Source: Promethearchaeota archaeon Loki_b32
Lineage (GTDB): Archaea > Asgardarchaeota > Lokiarchaeia > Sigyniarchaeales > SOKP01
Length of the DNA stretch: 64,000 nt
NCBI GenBank assembly: GCA_005223125.1
Contig: NJBH01000004.1
Coordinates: 32,001 to 96,000, forward strand
Direction of reading: 5' to 3'
Below, one piece after another: positions 37,437 through 47,008 of this stretch (the stretch's first letter is position 1; each line of letters begins with the position of its first letter). Below the pieces are notes generated by a model, which saw only the letters and a list, made by a program, of their open reading frames with translations, did no database searches and had not been told where the DNA came from. Both the position numbers and the translations under genes were made by a program.

Positions 37437-40400
37437 TTAACTTTGAACTAAAAGTGCAGAAATCATAGCGTGAATTTGCTCAAAACCAAAATGTTTAATA
37501 ACTATTGTTGAGTTAGGGCATTGAGCACCACATGTACCACATCCTTTGCAAAGTGCAGGATTTATGTGGGATTTCAATATAGTCATTGTGAAATCTTCGA
37601 ACGTTCTTTCTTCCTCTATTAATTCTATAGCGTTAAATTGACAAACTTCAAGACAACTTCCACAACCAATGCAATTTTCTTCTATTACAACAGCTACAAG
37701 CCCAGATGTTACAAGTTTTTCAGCGCTTAAAATTTTTACTGCTTGGGCAGCAGCTCCATTGGATTGTGCTATTGATTCTCGAAGATCTTTAGGTGAATGT
37801 GCGCTCCCACATAAATATATACCATCTGTTGCAAAATCAATTGGTCTCAATTTAACATGAGCTTCCAAAAAGAATTTGTCCTCATTAAGTGGAACTTTTA
37901 ACATTTTTGCTAAATCTTCATTTTCTTTTATAGGTGCTACGAGACCTGTACTTAATACAATTAAATCAGGATTTATTTCAATTTCTCCTAAATCTGGATT
38001 GTTTACTATTATTTTTAATTGTTTATTTTTAATATTTAATTCTGGAGGTTTAGTTTCATCAAATCTTATGAAGATAACCTTTTTATCTCGTGCTAGGTTA
38101 TAATATTTTTCTTTAAAACCATATGTCCTAATATCACGATAAAGAATCACTATTTCTATTTTAGGATTGATTTCTTTTGCTTTTAACGCATTTTTAATGG
38201 CTTCTGAACAACAGATTCTGCTACAATATGGGTGATCTTCATTTCTGGATCCAACGCATTGAATCATAACTATTGATTTCACTCCTTTTACTTTATCTGT
38301 AGTAAAAAGATCTTTTTCAAATTCAGTTTGGGTTATAATTCTTTGGTCTTGTCCAAAATTGTATTCATTTGGTTGATATTCTTTTGCTCCAGTCGCTACA
38401 ACTATTATTCCAAGTTCAAGATCAACACTTTTGTTATTATTTCCGTAGTTTATATTTGTGGAAAAATTTCCAATATACCCTGATATTGAATTGATTTGAG
38501 CATTTTTAAATACTTGAATAAGTTGATTATTTTCAACATTTTTAATTAAATTTTTAAGATATTCCTGAATATTATCATTTTCAAGGGTCCGATAAAGATT
38601 TTTAGCAATTCCCCCTAGAGAATCTTCCTTTTCAATTAAGTAAACTTCATAACCTTGAGAAGCTAGATTTAATGCTGCTGACATTCCAGATACACCACCA
38701 CCTATAATCAAACCTTTATTTATTACAGCTATTTCTTGTTCCTGTAACGGGATTAATTGGCTAGCCTTTGCTACTGACATGCGCAATAAGTCTTTTGATT
38801 TTGCCGTTGCTTTTTCAGGTTCATGCATATGGACCCACGAACATTGATCTCGAATATTTACCATTTCAAATAGATATTTATTTAAACCAACTTCTCTTAT
38901 TGTCGCTTGAAATAAAGCTTCATGAGTTCTTGGAGTACATGATGCAACAATCACTCTATTCAGTTTGTTATTTTCTATTTTTTCTTTAATATTAGTTTGA
39001 GTATCTGCTGAACAGGTATATAAATTATGTTCGGCATAAACAACATTGGGTAAAGTTTTAACATATTCTACTACATTAGGAACATCAACAACCCCACCAA
39101 TATTTATTCCGCAGTGACATATAAATACTCCTATTCGCGGTGGTTGATCAGTTACATCCAATTCTTCGGGAAGTTCTTTCTTAGAGACTAATTTGTTTCT
39201 TGCTTCTGATAGAAGAACATTTACACATCCAGCAGCAGCACTAGCTTCAATAACAGTTTCTGGAATATCTTTAGGTGTTGCGAAAGACCCACAAACATAA
39301 ATCCCTGGTCTTGAAGTATCTACGGGAGTAAAAGTTTCAGTTTTACAAAACCCATATTCATTTAATTGGATATTTAATTTCTGTGCTAATTCTTTTGCTT
39401 GTTGATTAGGTTGCATTCCTACAGAAAGGACGACTAGATTAAAAAATTCTTCAATAATTTTTCCATTTCCTGTTTCATAATAAACTTTTAAATCTTTAGA
39501 GTCCGGAATTTCTTTAATAGAAGATATTCTGCGCCTGATATATCTTATTCCATACTCATCCTTTGCTCGTTCAATATATTTATCAAAATCTTTACCATAT
39601 GCTCTGATATCCATTGTAAAAATGGTTGGATCTATAATATTCATATGCTCTTTCGCTATAACTGCTTCTTTTGTAGTATACATACAACATACTGAAGAGC
39701 AATAATCATTACCCTGCTTTCTGTCCCTTGAACCAATACAATTTAAAAAGGCAATTTTTTTAGGAATAATTCCATCAGAAGGGCGAATTATTAAACCTGA
39801 GTGTGGTCCACTAGCACTTAGAATACGCTCAAATTCAATACTAGTGATTACATTTAGATATTTACCATAGCCGAATTGCTTTAAAGGGGTAGGATCGTAT
39901 TCATCAAACCCTATTGCTAATACTACAGCACCTACATTAAGGTTAATTTCTTTATTTTGAAGTTCATAATCTATAGCTTTTACTTTACATATTCCCTTAC
40001 ATATTCCACAACCTATACATTTGTCTTTGTCAATTGAAAACACTAATGGAACTGCCTGTGGAAATTTTACGGATATTGCTGCTATATTAGAAAGTTTCTC
40101 ATTAAAAAAATCTATAGCCTCTATTGGACATTGTTGAGCACACAAACCACATCCAGTACATTTATTTTGATCTAAACGAAGTGTTCTTTGAGTTAAATCA
40201 ACCTTAAAATTACCAGGTTCACCTTCAATTTTTTCTATTGAAGAATTAATTAAAATATCGATATTTTCATGTCGTCCAGTTTCTACTAATTTCGGGGCAA
40301 GAATACATATTGCACAGTCATTAGTTGGAAATGTTTTATCTAATTGAGACATAACTCCACCAATACTGGTTGTTGATTCTGCGAGATAAACTTTATAACC

Positions 40401-40478
40401 TGAATCTGCTAAATCTATAGAAGTTTGAATACCTGCAATTCCACCACCAATTACTAGAACAGCTCCGACTTTCTCCAT
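37437..40478 (-). CDS. hdrA: HdrA-like flavoprotein, long two-FAD-domain form
   Basis: GGGIAG, FPTNDCAIC, CIGSRD, CHCGINI, CVGSR, EAHVKLRP, terminal ferredoxin. Confidence 0.92.
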   Translation of the reverse strand: MEKVGAVLVIGGGIAGIQTSIDLADSGYKVYLAESTTSIGGVMSQLDKTFPTNDCAICILAPKLVETGRHENIDILINSSIEKIEGEPGNFKVDLTQRTLRLDQNKCTGCGLCAQQCPIEAIDFFNEKLSNIAAISVKFPQAVPLVFSIDKDKCIGCGICKGICKVKAIDYELQNKEINLNVGAVVLAIGFDEYDPTPLKQFGYGKYLNVITSIEFERILSASGPHSGLIIRPSDGIIPKKIAFLNCIGSRDRKQGNDYCSSVCCMYTTKEAVIAKEHMNIIDPTIFTMDIRAYGKDFDKYIERAKDEYGIRYIRRRISSIKEIPDSKDLKVYYETGNGKIIEEFFNLVVLSVGMQPNQQAKELAQKLNIQLNEYGFCKTETFTPVDTSRPGIYVCGSFATPKDIPETVIEASAAAGCVNVLLSEARNKLVSKKELPEELDVTDQPPRIGVFICHCGINIGGVVDVPNVVEYVKTLPNVVYAEHNLYTCSADTQTNIKEKIENNKLNRVIVASCTPRTHEALFQATIREVGLNKYLFEMVNIRDQCSWVHMHEPEKATAKSKDLLRMSVAKASQLIPLQEQEIAVINKGLIIGGGVSGMSAALNLASQGYEVYLIEKEDSLGGIAKNLYRTLENDNIQEYLKNLIKNVENNQLIQVFKNAQINSISGYIGNFSTNINYGNNNKSVDLELGIIVVATGAKEYQPNEYNFGQDQRIITQTEFEKDLFTTDKVKGVKSIVMIQCVGSRNEDHPYCSRICCSEAIKNALKAKEINPKIEIVILYRDIRTYGFKEKYYNLARDKKVIFIRFDETKPPELNIKNKQLKIIVNNPDLGEIEINPDLIVLSTGLVAPIKENEDLAKMLKVPLNEDKFFLEAHVKLRPIDFATDGIYLCGSAHSPKDLRESIAQSNGAAAQAVKILSAEKLVTSGLVAVVIEENCIGCGSCLEVCQFNAIELIEEERTFEDFTMTILKSHINPALCKGCGTCGAQCPNSTIVIKHFGFEQIHAMISALLVQS

Positions 40479-41755
40479 TACTTTCCCTCAACATTTTTAT
40501 TGGGTTCTATTATTTTTATCAGATCTACTAAAAACTCTGAAAAATCTAAAATTTCAATAGAAGAAAAGTCTTCATAGTCTTTTTTTAGACAATTTAGATG
40601 CATGCGACATTTTGGACAAGATGTAATCATTTTGGTTCCAACAGCTTTAGCTTCTAAAAGACGTTTATATCGCAATGCTTTAGACCGCTCATTACAATTC
40701 ATCCAAGAATTTACTCCACAACAATAAGAATTTTCTTTATTGTGTTCCATTTCTTTAAAATTATAACCAATAATTTTCAAATGCTTGAAGATTTCTCGGA
40801 CTTCCTCAATTATTTTATTATCCTTTGGTAAAAATCTACTTAACCTACAAGGGTCATGATAAGTAAAAGGAATAACCTCATCAGATTTATTAGGATTTTT
40901 AAATAGAACTTTTCCCTGCTTCCATTTATCAAAAATATATTCAATTATGTGTTTAACTTCAAATTTTTTATTAAACTCTTCAAACAGTTTTGGATAATCA
41001 ATTTTAAAGGTTCTATAACATTCAGCACAAGCAGTAACAATTGTTGTAGCTCCCGTTTCTTCAAACCGTTTAACATTTTTTTTTGCTAATTCAATAAAGC
41101 TTTCGAATTTTGCTTGACCCCAATATAAATCGTGTCCACAGCATATCTCATCTTTTAGAATCACTACCGGATCTTTTTCTAATTGACAAATAATCTTAAG
41201 TGTGCTTTCTGCTATAGATAATGAGTCTTCAAATTCATAGTTAAAAAAAGGTAAACATCCGACATAATATAAAATATTTCCCTTATCTGAAGTTTTACAT
41301 CCTTTTGGAATCCAATCTAAAGGTCTCTCAATTTCCATATTGTCTTGACTCATCATTTCTGACATCAAAGGATAAATACCTTTATGAGCAATAGAACGAT
41401 CAGGATTTTGAATATCTTTTAATCGCATTTTATATCTAGCAATTCTGACAATATCAGCAAAATTAATATCTTTAGGGCAATGTTCTAGGCAACTATTACA
41501 CATTAAACAATCCCATAATACCTGACTATTAATTATCTCATCTTCAAAGCCTTCTAATATCATTTGAATAATTCTACTAGGTGTAAATTTTTGAACCTTA
41601 CTGATTTGACATACACCCGAGCAACGGGCACATTGATAACACTTTTTTAGCAAATTAATTAAATCTGGTTCATAAATCTTTCTTAAGTATAAATTAGAAT
41701 CATTTTCTTCTTGTTTTACCTTTTTAAGATTTTCGATTTCAGTTATGAGATTCAC
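40478..41755 (-). CDS. HdrD-like Fe-S oxidoreductase (4Fe-4S + CCG), paralog of 30056..31336
   Basis: CYQCARCSGVC, ICCG, YHDPCRL, YCCG. Confidence 0.88.
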   Translation of the reverse strand: MNLITEIENLKKVKQEENDSNLYLRKIYEPDLINLLKKCYQCARCSGVCQISKVQKFTPSRIIQMILEGFEDEIINSQVLWDCLMCNSCLEHCPKDINFADIVRIARYKMRLKDIQNPDRSIAHKGIYPLMSEMMSQDNMEIERPLDWIPKGCKTSDKGNILYYVGCLPFFNYEFEDSLSIAESTLKIICQLEKDPVVILKDEICCGHDLYWGQAKFESFIELAKKNVKRFEETGATTIVTACAECYRTFKIDYPKLFEEFNKKFEVKHIIEYIFDKWKQGKVLFKNPNKSDEVIPFTYHDPCRLSRFLPKDNKIIEEVREIFKHLKIIGYNFKEMEHNKENSYCCGVNSWMNCNERSKALRYKRLLEAKAVGTKMITSCPKCRMHLNCLKKDYEDFSSIEILDFSEFLVDLIKIIEPNKNVEGK

Positions 41756-41759
41756 TTCC

Positions 41760-42872
41760 TTATTTTAAGTTTTTCATGAATTCTTTTCTTCGTTCTATTT
41801 TTGATTCTGAAAATTTAGCTATTAGGGTTTTTATATTTCCTTTTGTATTTTCATCAAGTTTTAAGTTTTTAATAATGTTTTTATCTAATGCCTTCTGGAG
41901 TAACTGCCTACCTTTTTCAGTTCGGGGTATTACAGTAGTAAATCTATCTGGGGATCCAAGCCCTCCAAACGAAATATCTGAATAAATATTGGTAAAATCA
42001 ATACATGAATGACAAGCTGGGCGTATATAATTAACTAATTTATTAAAAGGAATATGGATTATCTTTTCTTTTGAGTCTTTATCTTCTAGCTTTAAAATTA
42101 AATCCTCCTTAATATTTATTTTTATAATATCTTCGAATTTTATCTTAAATTCTTTTTCAAATATCTCGATTTGAGATTTTTCAAATAGAAAATTGTGATA
42201 ACAGAATAAACCTAAACAAATCTCAACATGTTCTGAAGGGGTAACTCCTAAAGTCTGCATACATCTTATAGTATAAATTTGACAAGGTGTTCCCACAATT
42301 GCTAACTTTTTAAATTTATAATGACTTAATTGAGGAATTGAGGTTGTATAAGTGCTAAACCTTTGTATTTCATCTACTTGTGGAGATATATTTAAAATTG
42401 TACCCGATGCTTTAATTAGGTCGTCTTTATTCTCTGCCAACATAGCTTCTCGAGAAAATGGACTCTCAGCTTTAGAGACTATTGCTCCATCGATAATTTT
42501 ATTTTCTAATAAGAAATTTAAAAGTGTATTTACCACACCTCCATCTGTCCCATGTTTTAGAAATTCTTTATCCGTACTTTGACAAGAATAGAAATCTTCA
42601 GCAAATCCGTAAGGCATTGATTTAAAATCAGTGAATTGATATGTCTTATTAAGATCATCATCTAAAATATGTGTTTGAGGGCACAAGTAATAACATATAC
42701 CACATTCAAGGCATGCATCCTTATTTATATATTCAGGAGGGGATTTAGGCTCTTTAAAGCCTATTACATTCTCGAATGTTGCCGAACAGAAAGAAGTACA
42801 TCCACCACATTCTTGGCAGATCCCTTTTTCATGAACTTCCTTAATTAAATCTTGAAATGTTTTTATACTCAT
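41760..42872 (-). CDS. FrhB/FdhB family (F420-binding) protein with ferredoxin domain; likely start MSIKTF
   Basis: CQECGGCTSFC, CLECGICYYLCP, DGGVV, VGTPCQ, GLFC, DISFGGLG. Confidence 0.85.
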   Translation of the reverse strand: MSIKTFQDLIKEVHEKGICQECGGCTSFCSATFENVIGFKEPKSPPEYINKDACLECGICYYLCPQTHILDDDLNKTYQFTDFKSMPYGFAEDFYSCQSTDKEFLKHGTDGGVVNTLLNFLLENKIIDGAIVSKAESPFSREAMLAENKDDLIKASGTILNISPQVDEIQRFSTYTTSIPQLSHYKFKKLAIVGTPCQIYTIRCMQTLGVTPSEHVEICLGLFCYHNFLFEKSQIEIFEKEFKIKFEDIIKINIKEDLILKLEDKDSKEKIIHIPFNKLVNYIRPACHSCIDFTNIYSDISFGGLGSPDRFTTVIPRTEKGRQLLQKALDKNIIKNLKLDENTKGNIKTLIAKFSESKIERRKEFMKNLK

Positions 42873-42888
42873 ATTAATAATTTTTATA

Positions 42889-44385
42889 TTACTCCTTTTC
42901 CAATTTGATTGGTTTACAATTTTTTCTTTTGATACCAGCAATCCTTTCTAATAAGGGTTGCCCTGGTTTAACCTCCTTTAAGCTTTTAGATTCTATTAAA
43001 CCTGCTTTAATTGCCTCTTTATAGATTTTTTCACCTATTTTTGTTCTTGTTATTACTGATGACCAGCCACTAGGTGAACCTATTGATCCTACAGAAATAT
43101 CAGCAAAATCGGCTGTTAAATCTTCACAATAATGACAATTATGGCGAGCATAGGACTTAACTTCTTTTAAGGGTACTCTTAGGTCCTCACCAGAATCTAA
43201 GTATATAATGAATTTACCTCCACTTATGTCCATTTTTGTTACTTTATTAAAATCTTTTTGAAATTGTTCTTTAATTAAGTTAAGTACGCCCTCGTAAGGA
43301 AAAGATTCCATGCAGAAAAGTCCTATTCTATATTTGATATTTTTGAAAAATGGTAATCCACTCGGAAACAAAGTACCCTTTTCAATAGCATTCATTATAC
43401 ATGGAGTACCTACAACAGCTATTTTGTCATATTTCTTGGCTTTATCTATAATAGCTAAAGTAGATGCATTTGCATATTTAGTTCCCCCAGTCTTATATAA
43501 ATCTTTCAAATCATCCACAATGACGGGTTCAGGCTTCCATTTCTCTTCTGAGTGCTGTACTGCTACAATTGCGTCAACCAGTTTATTTTCTAATAAGTAT
43601 TGTAAAATGGATGTAACAACACCACCATCTTGTCTTACTTTTTTAATATCATCCTTAGTGGTGCTGGCAGAATAAGTATTGATATAACCATTAATTTTTT
43701 CTGAAAATTTTAAAGATTTATCAAGCTTATTTATACTTCTGCCCGCTTGCTCAATTGAAAATGATTTCGGGCAAACAGAATAACATATGCCGCATTTCAT
43801 ACAAGTTTCATCATCGATCTCCAAAATATCTGCTGTTACTGTAATTGCGTTTACAGGACAAATTGATGAGCACCAACCACATTGACAGCATACTTCAGAA
43901 TCAAACACAATAGAAACAGGTTCAAAAAAATGTTCAATGAAGTCATCAGGCAGATCTTTAACTTGATATCTATAGAAATATTCTTTTTCCTCGACTTTTT
44001 TTTCTTCTCCCTTTATTTTCTTGATAACAGTTTTAGTCTTTATTTCGATATGTTCTTCAATATATCCCTGTTCTTTAAGATAAATTACATCACGAATTAC
44101 ATTTTCTCTAGGAAACTCTTTTAGAATTTTTGCAATTTCCTCTAAAAATAATGGTTCCTTACCTTTTAATGATTCTAACACTAATTTACGCTCTGTTTCA
44201 GCATCGATCATAGCATCCAGAATTTCATAAAACTCCTCCTCAGAAAGTTTTCCTACACTTAGAATATCATTCTTTGCTTCGAAGAAAGCTCGAATTTGAA
44301 AATTCTCAACTGCTTTATAGGTTGCATCCATTAAATTTTTTGGAGATACTCCATTGAAATTTACATTGTTTGAAATTTGAACCAT
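42889..44385 (-). CDS. FrhB family protein with N-terminal helical/winged-helix-like extension and ferredoxin
   Basis: CCQCGWCSSICP, QDGGVVT, GGTKY, VGTPC, GLFCMESF, CHYCED..ADISVG. Confidence 0.85.
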   Translation of the reverse strand: MVQISNNVNFNGVSPKNLMDATYKAVENFQIRAFFEAKNDILSVGKLSEEEFYEILDAMIDAETERKLVLESLKGKEPLFLEEIAKILKEFPRENVIRDVIYLKEQGYIEEHIEIKTKTVIKKIKGEEKKVEEKEYFYRYQVKDLPDDFIEHFFEPVSIVFDSEVCCQCGWCSSICPVNAITVTADILEIDDETCMKCGICYSVCPKSFSIEQAGRSINKLDKSLKFSEKINGYINTYSASTTKDDIKKVRQDGGVVTSILQYLLENKLVDAIVAVQHSEEKWKPEPVIVDDLKDLYKTGGTKYANASTLAIIDKAKKYDKIAVVGTPCIMNAIEKGTLFPSGLPFFKNIKYRIGLFCMESFPYEGVLNLIKEQFQKDFNKVTKMDISGGKFIIYLDSGEDLRVPLKEVKSYARHNCHYCEDLTADFADISVGSIGSPSGWSSVITRTKIGEKIYKEAIKAGLIESKSLKEVKPGQPLLERIAGIKRKNCKPIKLEKE

Positions 44386-44448: not shown

Positions 44449-44516
44449 ACCCCTTCCCTTGCGAGGTTGGTCTTCTTATAACTAGAATTTGTTTATAAGA
44501 ATCATTCCGTAGGGGT
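44449..44516 (-). promoter_or_regulatory. eukaryote-type (Loki) SECIS element
   Basis: mRNA: ACCCCU acgg AUGA U-UCUUAUAA acAAAuucuag UUAUAAGA-A GA ccaaccucgcaaggga AGGGGU; AUGA/GA core, 9-bp upper stem, apical AAA, 6-bp lower helix. Confidence 0.85.
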
Positions 44517-44963
44517 AGTTATAACTTGTTTTGCTTCAACTTTCGATTTATCATCTACTAAGTTAAGTGGACTTGGTCCGGCTTTGCTAACCTTTTTGTA
44601 AGCGTCCTCAACAGATTCGACAAATTTCCCAGCATCTCCTCCACTTAACCAATACATATTTATTCTTTGATTTCCGAAACCTCTGGATTCTAAGATCCTA
44701 TTTGCTAAGTCTACATGTCTTTGAGCAGTGAAATTTCCGTTTTTAAATTGACACTCATTAGGTCGTCAACCAACAATCATGACACCATCAGCTCCCGCGC
44801 GAATGCTATATAAAATGTGCTTAATGTCAATTCTTCCAGTACATCTTACTTTGATAATTTTTACTGCAGGAGTGTATTTCATTCGAGAAACCCCAGCTAA
44901 ATCCGCCGCGCTATATCCTCATTTTATGCAAGCAAAAACGATTAAATTATAAGTATTTTCCAT
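44502..44963 (-). CDS. vhuD: selenocysteine-containing VhuD/MvhD (153 aa, Sec15 and Sec66); absent from ORF track
   Basis: [51 protein letters not shown]..; TGA at 44919-44921 and 44766-44768 align to Cys of the two Cys-MvhD paralogs; SD GGAGGTG from the hdrA 3' end. Confidence 0.92.
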
Positions 44964-44969
44964 GTTTTT

Positions 44970-47008
44970 TTAACCACCTCCTAAAAGACCATCAATTTCA
45001 GCGAATAATTGGTGATCTCGATAATATCTGATGTCAATTGCTTGAGTAGGACAACAAGTAGCACAAATACCGCAACCGTCACAATTTATTTCATCAATAA
45101 ACGCTCCGATATCTTCTTCAATTCTAATAGCATTTTTAGGACATTCTTTTTCACATCGTCTACATGAAATGCAGAATTCACTATCTACTTCAGCAGTAAT
45201 AAGTTCAATATCAATTTCTCCTGGTGATGTTACTTCAGCAACTTTACTAGCCGCAGCTCTAGCTTGAGAAACGGAGTAAGAAATATTTTTCGGTCCTTGA
45301 GCAAATCCAGCAATAAAAATTCCTTTTGCCTTTGTTTCTTGTGGCATTAAACCGAAATGTGATTCTGTAAGAAAGCCATATATATTAGTATCAAGATTTA
45401 ATACCTTTACAATCTGTTCAGTACCTTTTGAAGGAAGTGCTGCTGTAGATAAAACGACTAAATCAGCATCAATTTTTACAATCTTATCTGTTAATGACGA
45501 ATATACACGAACTTTCACGTTTTTGGTTTCGGGATCTTCAGAGATTTCACCGACTTTTCCACGAATCATTCTGATACCTGCATCTTTAGCTCGTTCGTAG
45601 TATTCTTCAAATCCTTTTTCAGGAGTTCTTATGTCAATATAGCAAATAGTAATGTTCGCATCGGGAAATTCTTCGAGCAATAAGCGTCCATTTTTTAGAG
45701 CAAGCATACAGCATACACCACTACAATAGGTTCGTTCAGTTTCTCGACTTCCTACGCATTGTATAAATACAATTTCTTTGGGTTGTTTATTATCTGAAAG
45801 CCGGTGTACATGTCCTTCAAGTGGTCCATTCGGAGCTAGTATTCGTTCTAATTGAACTTGAGTTATAACATTTTCGAATTCTCCATACCCATATTCACCA
45901 AAAGGTTCATGTATGTCCCAACCAGTTGTTATAATGATCGTACCAACTTCGATATTGACTTCCATAGGTACTTGACTAAAATCAATGGCATCTAATTCAC
46001 AGGCATCTACACATGAGAAACATTCAACACAAGCATCTCGGTCAATATCATATAAAAACGGTACTGCTTGACCAAATGGTATATCAATTGCTCTTCGAGC
46101 TCCTAAATGTTCATCGAAATAATTACTTACATATACGGGGCAAACCTCACTGCATGCACCACACCCATTGCATTCGTCTGTTGTATATCGCGGTTTTTTT
46201 TCAATTGTTACGTTATAATTACCAACATAACCCTCGATTTTTTTGACTTCACTATAGGTTAATAATTCAATGTTCTCATTTCTGTTGATATTTAGCATAA
46301 CAGGACCGCAGATTCATATTGCACAATCATCAGTGGGAAAAGTTCTGTCCAATTGAGCCATTCGTCCTCCGATTGTCGTTTTCTGTTCGACTAAGTAAAC
46401 TTTTATACCTTGGTTGGCAAGATCGAGCGCGGCATTCATTCCAGCTATACCCCCACCGACGATTAAAGTGGCCTTCTTAACTGGAACAGTCTTAATAGGA
46501 ATGGGTTCTAAAAGTTTAGCTCTTTCAATACCGCTTTTTACTAATGTTTTTGCTTTTTCTGTAGCCTCTTCTTTACTATCCGTGCACCAATTTTGCATTG
46601 AGCAGTAAATCTGCTTAAAAAAAATCTGCAATGTTCACGGACGTTAACCATCTGAAAGTAATAAGGATTTAAATCTGTTTTAGCAATTGTACCCCGGTAA
46701 ATCACTTCATGCGTACGCGGTGTTCAAGCTGATGCCACAATCCTATTTAAACCTTTTTCCTTGATATCTTCTATTATCTCATTTTGAGCGTTATCAGTTC
46801 ATAGAAAAGCGTTTTTCTTAGAAATTACAATATCATCAAAATTTTTGGTTGCAAACTCTACGAGCTCGTCGCAATCAACCTTAGAACGGATATTAATCCC
46901 TCATTTGCCAAAAACAAGGAAATCATACTTTTTTTGGCAGGCATAATATCCAATCCTTAGCTGTTCATTATCTTTATTAATCTTCGTATCATTCCATTGA
47001 CTATTCAT
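44970..47008 (-). CDS. hdrA: selenocysteine-containing HdrA (4 Sec; 657 aa after removal of two putative introns)
   Basis: TGA at 46901-03 (C-x-U-GINI), 46799-801 (FL-U-TD), 46724-26 (SA-U-TPRTHE), 46314-16 (DCAI-U-IC), all at Cys positions of the paralogs; joins track ORFs 46314..46631 and 44970..46298. Confidence 0.88.
46591..46625 (-). other. putative 35-nt BHB-type mRNA intron (intron 2 of Sec-hdrA)
   Basis: Removal gives GAA CAT TGC AG^T TGG TGC = EHCSWC and restores frame; central helix UUGC/GCAA, bulges AG^A and AA^U, exon-exon stem GUCCGUG/CACGGAU. Confidence 0.72.
46904..46933 (-). other. putative 30-nt BHB-type mRNA intron (intron 1 of Sec-hdrA)
   Basis: Removal gives TGC CAA^TGA GGG = CQUGINI; central helix UGCC/GGCA, bulges AA^A and AA^U, exon-exon stem GGAUAUUA/UAAUAUCC. 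Confidence 0.68.

Follow-up and report, generated by a model that had tools for sequence, protein, structure and literature searches.

Short inserts in a four-selenocysteine hdrA gene of a Lokiarchaeon are probable BHB introns of its mRNA

Can the hdrA gene of Promethearchaeota archaeon Loki_b32 (genome G000) encode a full-length protein when its reading frame is broken by a 35-nt insert? The gene lies in a stretch of 64,000 nt of contig NJBH01000004.1 (the window; positions without a contig label refer to it). The original prediction regarded the insert as a BHB intron rather than the site of a programmed -1 ribosomal frameshift. It described this insert, but neither a second intron of the same gene nor the class of similar inserts across the genome, both of which are reported below.

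Organization of the hdrA gene

Alignment of hdrA with 18 and then with 31 same-genus orthologs revealed exactly two extra pieces, one of 35 and one of 30 nt. The predicted 35-nt insertion was confirmed by the 18 orthologs and by the intron-free gene of genome G014. For brevity, the two putative introns are called intron 1 and intron 2. The locus is organized as follows.

47008 (ATG) to 44970, minus strand: hdrA gene
46934-47008, minus strand: exon 1; ATG at 47008, last codons Cys-Gln of the CxU motif
46904-46933, minus strand: intron 1; 30 nt, in frame, stop-free; central helix UGCC/GGCA, bulges AA^A and AA^U, 9-bp stem, G-AUUUC-C loop
46626-46903, minus strand: exon 2; first codon is the UGA of Sec26; Sec60 at 46799-46801, Sec85 at 46724-46726
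46591-46625, minus strand: intron 2; 35 nt, frame-breaking, relaxed BHB; interrupts the Ser codon (AG^U) of REHC-S-W
44970-46590, minus strand: exon 3; FAD and ferredoxin domains; Sec210 UGA at 46314-46316; stop TAA at 44970-44972
44502-44963, minus strand: vhuD/mvhD (FlpD family), directly downstream of hdrA; two in-frame UGA (Sec)
44471-44505, minus strand: lokiSECIS (AUGA, 9-bp stem, 11-nt loop, GA), common to hdrA and vhuD

When both inserts were cut out, an hdrA of 657 codons resulted, with selenocysteine at positions 26, 60, 85, and 210 and no other stop. Its in-frame UGA codons are conserved among the orthologs. An intron-free ortholog from the same genus matched solved HdrA chains over its full length (E 2e-199); scores of hdrA with the NCBIfam HdrA models were under their cut-offs. 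The HdrA fold, UGA at Cys positions, the downstream vhuD, and the SECIS shape identify the gene as a multi-Sec hdrA. The lokiSECIS shape given for hdrA-vhuD pairs by Mariotti 2016 (PMC4989117) is the one seen here, and host gene, tandem order, and four Sec likewise agree with the multi-Sec HdrA and shared HdrA-VhuD lokiSECIS described there and in PMC11227280. However, neither introns nor frameshifts are described in the accessible part of the former paper, and the words intron and frameshift do not occur in the latter, whereas the gene studied here contains inserts.

The N-terminus of HdrA (46955-47008, minus strand) is about 10 codons longer than that of most orthologs, and the region upstream could not be aligned to theirs. 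Downstream, a cluster at 37437-44385 (minus strand) comprises two FrhB-like genes, of which one carries a long extension at its N-terminus, as well as an HdrC/D-like gene and a gene for a 1013-aa all-Cys HdrA-like protein. Comparison with relatives detected no inserts in this cluster.

Geometry of the two inserts

The elements of intron 2 and its flanks are listed below.

46578-46642, minus strand: outer exon-exon stem GUCCGUG (46636-46642)/CACGGAU (46578-46584), which closes the BHB and is also predicted in L296
46628-46631, minus strand: central helix, exon strand UUGC
46593-46596, minus strand: central helix, intron strand GCAA (ACAA opposite UUGU in G024)
46601-46615, minus strand: terminal hairpin AGCAG-AUUUA-CUGCU; the distance from the closure of the G-AUUUA-C loop to the intron end is 14 nt, which is also the case in the 30-nt class
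46616-46622, minus strand: U_UUU_UUA heptamer, in frame, inside a T8 run

The claimed geometry, i.e. UUGC/GCAA between the bulges AGA and AAU with hairpin and outer stem, was found in the sequence itself as well as in its predicted fold. Cuts at AG^A and AA^U rebuild AGU UGG, the Ser-Trp junction seen in intron-free relatives, and the BHB cut sites fall on the borders of the alignment gap with zero shift. The unspliced frame reads EHCRFFLSRF...KKQKH and stops at TAG 46541-46543 after 155 residues, as had been stated; this count requires reading of three UGA as Sec and includes ten codons of intron 1. The peptides predicted at the junction are EHCSWCTDSK for the spliced form versus QIYCSMQNWCTDSK. 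Imperfect pairing beside the bulges had been claimed as well. This proved correct for the intron-side helix (2/5 paired, the first pair being U.U) but not for the exon side, where A-U and C-G are good pairs. Because of the weak intron-side helix, intron 2 misses the strict BHB criterion. Its fold taken alone was not significant, with a z of -1.3 and 25 of 200 shuffles equalling it. With so weak a fold and so poor an intron-side helix, the case for intron 2 rests on comparison with relatives.

Intron 1 directly precedes the first Sec codon, and its excision yields Cys-Gln-Sec. It is missing from the 31 genus orthologs, and here too the gap matches the BHB cut sites with zero shift. Its intron-side helix is fully paired (5/5), and its exon-side helix has one pair. 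Thus, neither insert has the strict hBHBh' form; both are relaxed, and the central helix of each consists of four Watson-Crick pairs out of four. At the 3' cut of intron 1, the U of the Sec26 UGA is the third bulge base.

Inserts in hdrA of related genomes

At the same base as intron 2, G024 and the metagenome contig L296 harbor 34-nt inserts of different inner sequence. In G024, the central helix is UUGU/ACAA instead of UUGC/GCAA, a compensatory change from C-G to U-A. The BHB versions of G024 and L296 are near the strict form, and their shape differs from that of intron 2 and the 30-nt class. Left unspliced, both inserts lead to a stop within 22 codons, and neither contains a slippery heptamer.

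This contrast separates splicing from frameshifting: a -1 shift rescues 35 but not 34 nt, whereas splicing rescues both. Frameshifting at U_UUU_UUA would yield HdrA in full length, its C-S-W motif enlarged by about 12 residues, and it draws on a heptamer that is in frame, is followed by a hairpin, and gives access to a -1 frame open to the end of the gene. The hairpin, though, is weak and starts at the base right after the heptamer, leaving no spacer of 5-9 nt. In-frame U_UUU_UUA is also common in this genome (716 cases in 589 of 3607 ORFs), no insertion occurs at this site in any intron-free ortholog or solved HdrA, and intron 1 and the stop-containing inserts would stay unexplained. With no spacer and no conservation, the heptamer was judged incidental. 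As the 34-nt inserts sit at the same base, lack the heptamer, and would require another shift, -1 frameshifting is excluded as the general mechanism, and we consider it extremely unlikely for intron 2. The earlier preference for BHB splicing is upheld by these inserts, which keep the BHB register.

Miscalling of the T8 run by one base is conceivable in a metagenome-derived genome. Independent assemblies, however, have differing inserts at the same base, and a homopolymer error cannot produce 35 nt with a customised helix, which brings the probability of an assembly or sequencing artefact close to nil. The original prediction had counted T6 or T9 reads, together with the non-spliced peptide and a lack of spliced cDNA, as a refutation of the BHB, which is partly mistaken. 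Such reads would indeed restore the frame, but they could not tell the two readings apart, since an insert of 11-12 codons and an intact BHB would remain.

L285 and L286 likewise have an insert at the intron 1 site, and that of L286 contains an in-frame TAA. Further inserts were found at codon 19 (G048), codon 80 (L307, L309), and codon 102 (G020, G067; 39 nt with stops), so that hdrA inserts among relatives occupy five sites, namely codons 16, 19, 80, 102, and 108. The central pairs were complete (4/4) in ten inserts covering the five sites and numbered 3/4 in one; the chance of 4/4 is 2.5% per placement. Insert lengths of 30, 34, 35, and 39 nt represent all three frames, some with stops, and only removal rescues all of them. 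All sites lie within the first 110 of about 650 codons, i.e. in the iron-sulfur domain with three Sec. Gaps at codons 6-10 (L286, L289, L297, L305; open and in frame) and a 13-nt gap in L315 had no BHB geometry; they were ascribed to a variable N-terminus and left uncounted.

In the gene tree, monophyly of the three codon-108 insert carriers was rejected (p-AU 7.5e-6), and insert carriers mostly have intron-free sister genomes. These observations point to repeated gain at favoured sites, repeated loss, transfer, or recombination, among which the p-AU test cannot separate.

The occurrence of each insert in few genomes, mostly beside intron-free sisters, would also suit a recent insertion that knocked out hdrA, the hairpin shape being a by-product of DNA insertion. 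The genome encodes further HdrA-like genes; the selenocysteine hdrA need therefore not be essential, and paralogs could compensate for its loss. Against a dead gene stand 657 codons without another lesion and the retention of four UGA and the SECIS. The median dN/dS of the joined hdrA versus 12 relatives was 0.044, equal to that among the relatives (0.043), at a dS near 1. Moreover, three genomes that do not form a clade have an insert at one and the same base, the register of the cuts matches that of EndA exactly, and stop-containing inserts occur in EF-2 in a third of the genus (see below). Loss of function is thus a very improbable explanation.

Inserts in other protein-coding genes

An ORF-guided census between G000 and 2.4 Mb of G006 covered about 1490 genes in each direction. 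Six frame-breaking inserts of 30-31 nt in conserved motifs were detected in G000 and three in G006. With the two hdrA introns, the protein-gene inserts of G000 found by comparison with relatives amount to eight. Names of the three G006 genes of the census were assigned from motifs and are to be taken as presumptive. The six inserts of G000, five of them listed as BHB-type members of the 30-31-nt set, and those of G006 are as follows.

G000 C3:75804-75833, plus strand: EF-2, P-loop insert of 30 nt with in-frame stops
G000 C32:11030-11060, plus strand: Fe-S protein, BHB-type
G000 C64:72108-72137, minus strand: metallo-hydrolase, BHB-type
G000 C4:82075-82105, minus strand: NDP-sugar epimerase-like gene, BHB-type
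G000 C63:17590-17619, plus strand: small GTPase, BHB-type
G000 C32:33892-33921, minus strand: lsrF-like aldolase, BHB-type
G006: CinA-like, UppS-like, and mevalonate kinase-like genes, three frame-breaking inserts
G006 C1:2089461-2089490, minus strand: BHB-type insert of 30 nt with a stop, inside a CxxC zinc-ribbon motif at the C-terminus; detected solely by a motif scan

A fixed BHB criterion, applied within three bases of the gap, was matched by eight of nine frame-breaking inserts of 28-40 nt versus none of seven open in-frame indels of like size; the ninth fits a BHB in a wider register. The background of this criterion is 1.9% per placement or about 15-20% per insert with the allowed slack, which gives a probability on the order of 1e-5 for 8/9 by hand calculation. 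Interpretation of the lsrF-like insert as a duplication was dropped, as the BHB fits 13 bases further on. Inserts with BHB geometry whose removal restores the motifs were also seen in psmA, gyrB, rpl11, and an FAD enzyme, a judgement made from geometry and motif rather than by ortholog check. An RNase HII candidate was not reproduced in a peptide search. Inserts of several other genes likewise lie near the 5' end, yet two are near codon 178.

For EF-2, 17 of 50 full matches in the genus had a stop-containing insert within the first 120 codons. The corresponding span was 390 instead of 360 bases in 16 of the 50 and 420 in one, each with in-frame stops. In other genera of the family, stops were present in this stretch in six genomes; none were found in 18 genomes of three other families. 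Two EF-2 inserts read at the sequence level occupied different codons, 35 and 64, and each had 4/4 central pairs. The sole other EF-2-like gene in G000 is 34% identical.

Nucleotide tiling of G000 versus G006 without coding context had been noisy, with intergenic indels giving chance helices, and was replaced by the ORF-guided census. A de novo scan for loop motif plus BHB returned 107 hits versus 76-81 in shuffles, so the motif alone does not mark introns. G000 and 2.4 Mb of G006 were screened for donor copies of the introns, but the introns matched only themselves, each being single copy. At 30-39 nt and with no catalytic RNA core or encoded nuclease, the inserts are not homing-endonuclease or group I/II introns.

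Relation to tRNA introns

ARAGORN made only 15 tRNA calls in this 95% complete genome. Additional tRNAs were uncovered by taking BHB pieces of 29-31 nt out of T- and D-loops. T-loop introns of 29-30 nt missed by ARAGORN are located at the following positions.

G000 C4:19335-19364, C4:18445-18474, and C32:27328-27357, minus strand: tRNA T-loop introns
G000 C57:17550-17579, C57:28521-28550, and C22:33819-33847, minus strand: tRNA T-loop introns

When aligned at their termini, the 30-mers (eleven from mRNA, six from tRNA) share one layout: one bulge base, a 9-bp stem enclosing a 5-nt loop, four helix bases, and two final bases. The first base of the 3' bulge was A in 17/17, and the stem register was 81% paired versus 42-50% in neighbouring registers, values to be read with the fact that the tRNA 30-mers were picked for BHB and one mRNA 30-mer for its loop. 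A loop NNUUC (positions 11-15, with UUC at loop positions 3-5) was found in six of the ten mRNA 30-mers identified by homology. In intron 2, a loop of the same type lies equally far from the 3' end, and the 5' arm contains five U in excess; this intron may thus be a 30-mer whose U-run was enlarged by five through slippage.

Uniform size and the recurring NNUUC loop suggest a protein partner beyond EndA, and an unknown RNA-processing enzyme, ribosome bypassing, or DNA-level excision might in principle remove or skip the inserts. For bypassing, no matched take-off and landing codons reach the right frame, and the repeated UGC lands in the unspliced frame; most borders are without direct repeats. 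The register of a helix plus two bases and the A at the first 3' bulge base are those of EndA. Such another route is accordingly judged very unlikely.

Repeated independent gains of non-canonical tRNA introns at BHB-forming sites, with no shared sequence family and by an unknown route of arrival, have been reported for Asgard archaea (bioRxiv 10.64898/2026.10.13.758758). The hdrA class resembles them in its putative repeated gains and in the lack of a shared sequence family, and the T- and D-loop introns of the present genome are also 29-31 nt long. That census dealt with tRNA genes only and did not mention mRNA, whereas the inserts described here are in protein genes. From these sequence likenesses we infer, with more reserve than for splicing itself, that the hdrA introns may be mobile or repeatedly gained elements of about 30 nt, of the same class as the non-canonical tRNA introns of the lineage.

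Enzymes and proposed pathway

The genome encodes two EndA paralogs (PF01974), one with the catalytic Tyr-His-Lys motifs, and one full RtcB gene. Asgard EndA is a two-subunit enzyme with a loop permitting relaxed motifs, of the broad-specificity type by sequence (PMC5829648). Because a two-subunit EndA accepts relaxed motifs, the relaxed forms of introns 1 and 2 are acceptable.

The inserts with their exact borders, the geometry, an intact gene under selection, and the enzyme genes are established. Everything after transcription, i.e. cutting, joining, and Sec reading in the cell, is deduced from sequence. In the proposed pathway, each insert and its flanks in the hdrA-vhuD transcript would fold into a 4-bp helix flanked by two 3-nt bulges. 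EndA, as a two-subunit enzyme, would cut past the second base of each bulge, and RtcB would join the exons, so that removal of 30 + 35 nt would give the 657-codon HdrA. The four UGA would then be read as Sec by means of the SECIS located behind vhuD. Retention of intron 2 would end translation at 155 residues, and retention of intron 1 would place ten extra residues between Cys24 and Sec26. Coupled translation could unfold the BHB before cleavage. Intron 2 very probably represents a BHB intron of the mRNA for a four-selenocysteine HdrA, and it is highly likely that both inserts are archaeal BHB introns of protein-coding mRNA, excised by EndA and joined by RtcB.

Discussion

Splicing of a coding sequence at a BHB has been shown by cDNA for the cbf5 pre-mRNA of Desulfurococcales and Sulfolobales (Yokobori 2009, PMC2738675; also Watanabe 2002). 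Like the hdrA inserts, the cbf5 intron is short (16-44 nt) and too short to encode a nuclease, often has a relaxed BHB, splits a codon in a conserved motif, and is patchy in its presence. It differs in occupying one site in one gene and in being cDNA-proven, whereas splicing at hdrA, with two introns per mRNA and five sites across relatives, is predicted from sequence. In contrast to cbf5, the inserts in the Asgard lineage amount to eight genes' worth or more within a single genome. A BHB intron of 46 nt in the 5' UTR of HVO_1309 of Haloferax volcanii, reported with cbf5 as the only other mRNA case (PMC7714728), is an EndA mRNA substrate as proposed for hdrA but lies outside the coding sequence. 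The literature on archaeal and Asgard mRNA introns, searched mostly outside subscription journals, contained no report of the hdrA-type class and coding-sequence splicing for cbf5 only. New at hdrA are the contrast of 34 and 35 nt at one base, the two introns in a recoded selenoprotein mRNA, and the five sites in one domain.

Taken together, it is likely that one Lokiarchaeia family routinely splices mRNAs with tRNA machinery, affecting at least a dozen genes in each genome, EF-2 among them. The introns would be spreading BHB elements of about 30 nt with a fixed stem-loop, reappearing in unrelated branches at identical conserved codons, and hdrA would need two splicings plus four Sec recodings.

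Archaeal coding sequences are regarded as intron-free except for cbf5. Eukaryotes retain the EndA-type enzyme family for tRNA splicing, and RtcB is also used there for XBP1 mRNA. Should the inserts indeed be spliced, many mRNAs would be processed ahead of translation in the prokaryotes most closely related to eukaryotes, by the enzyme family that serves eukaryotic tRNA splicing. The BHB mechanism is separate from that of spliceosomal introns and says nothing direct about spliceosomal origin. Splicing would also mean that Asgard gene catalogues include false pseudogenes and truncated proteins, raise the question of how it competes with coupled translation, and provide many independent, recent gains for studying the origin of BHB introns.

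A further observation was made on the 30-nt codon-80 intron of L307 and L309 (1083-1112, plus strand), which holds a 12-base copy of its own flanking exon, possibly a trace of origin by local duplication. L309 derives from an LAZR contig.
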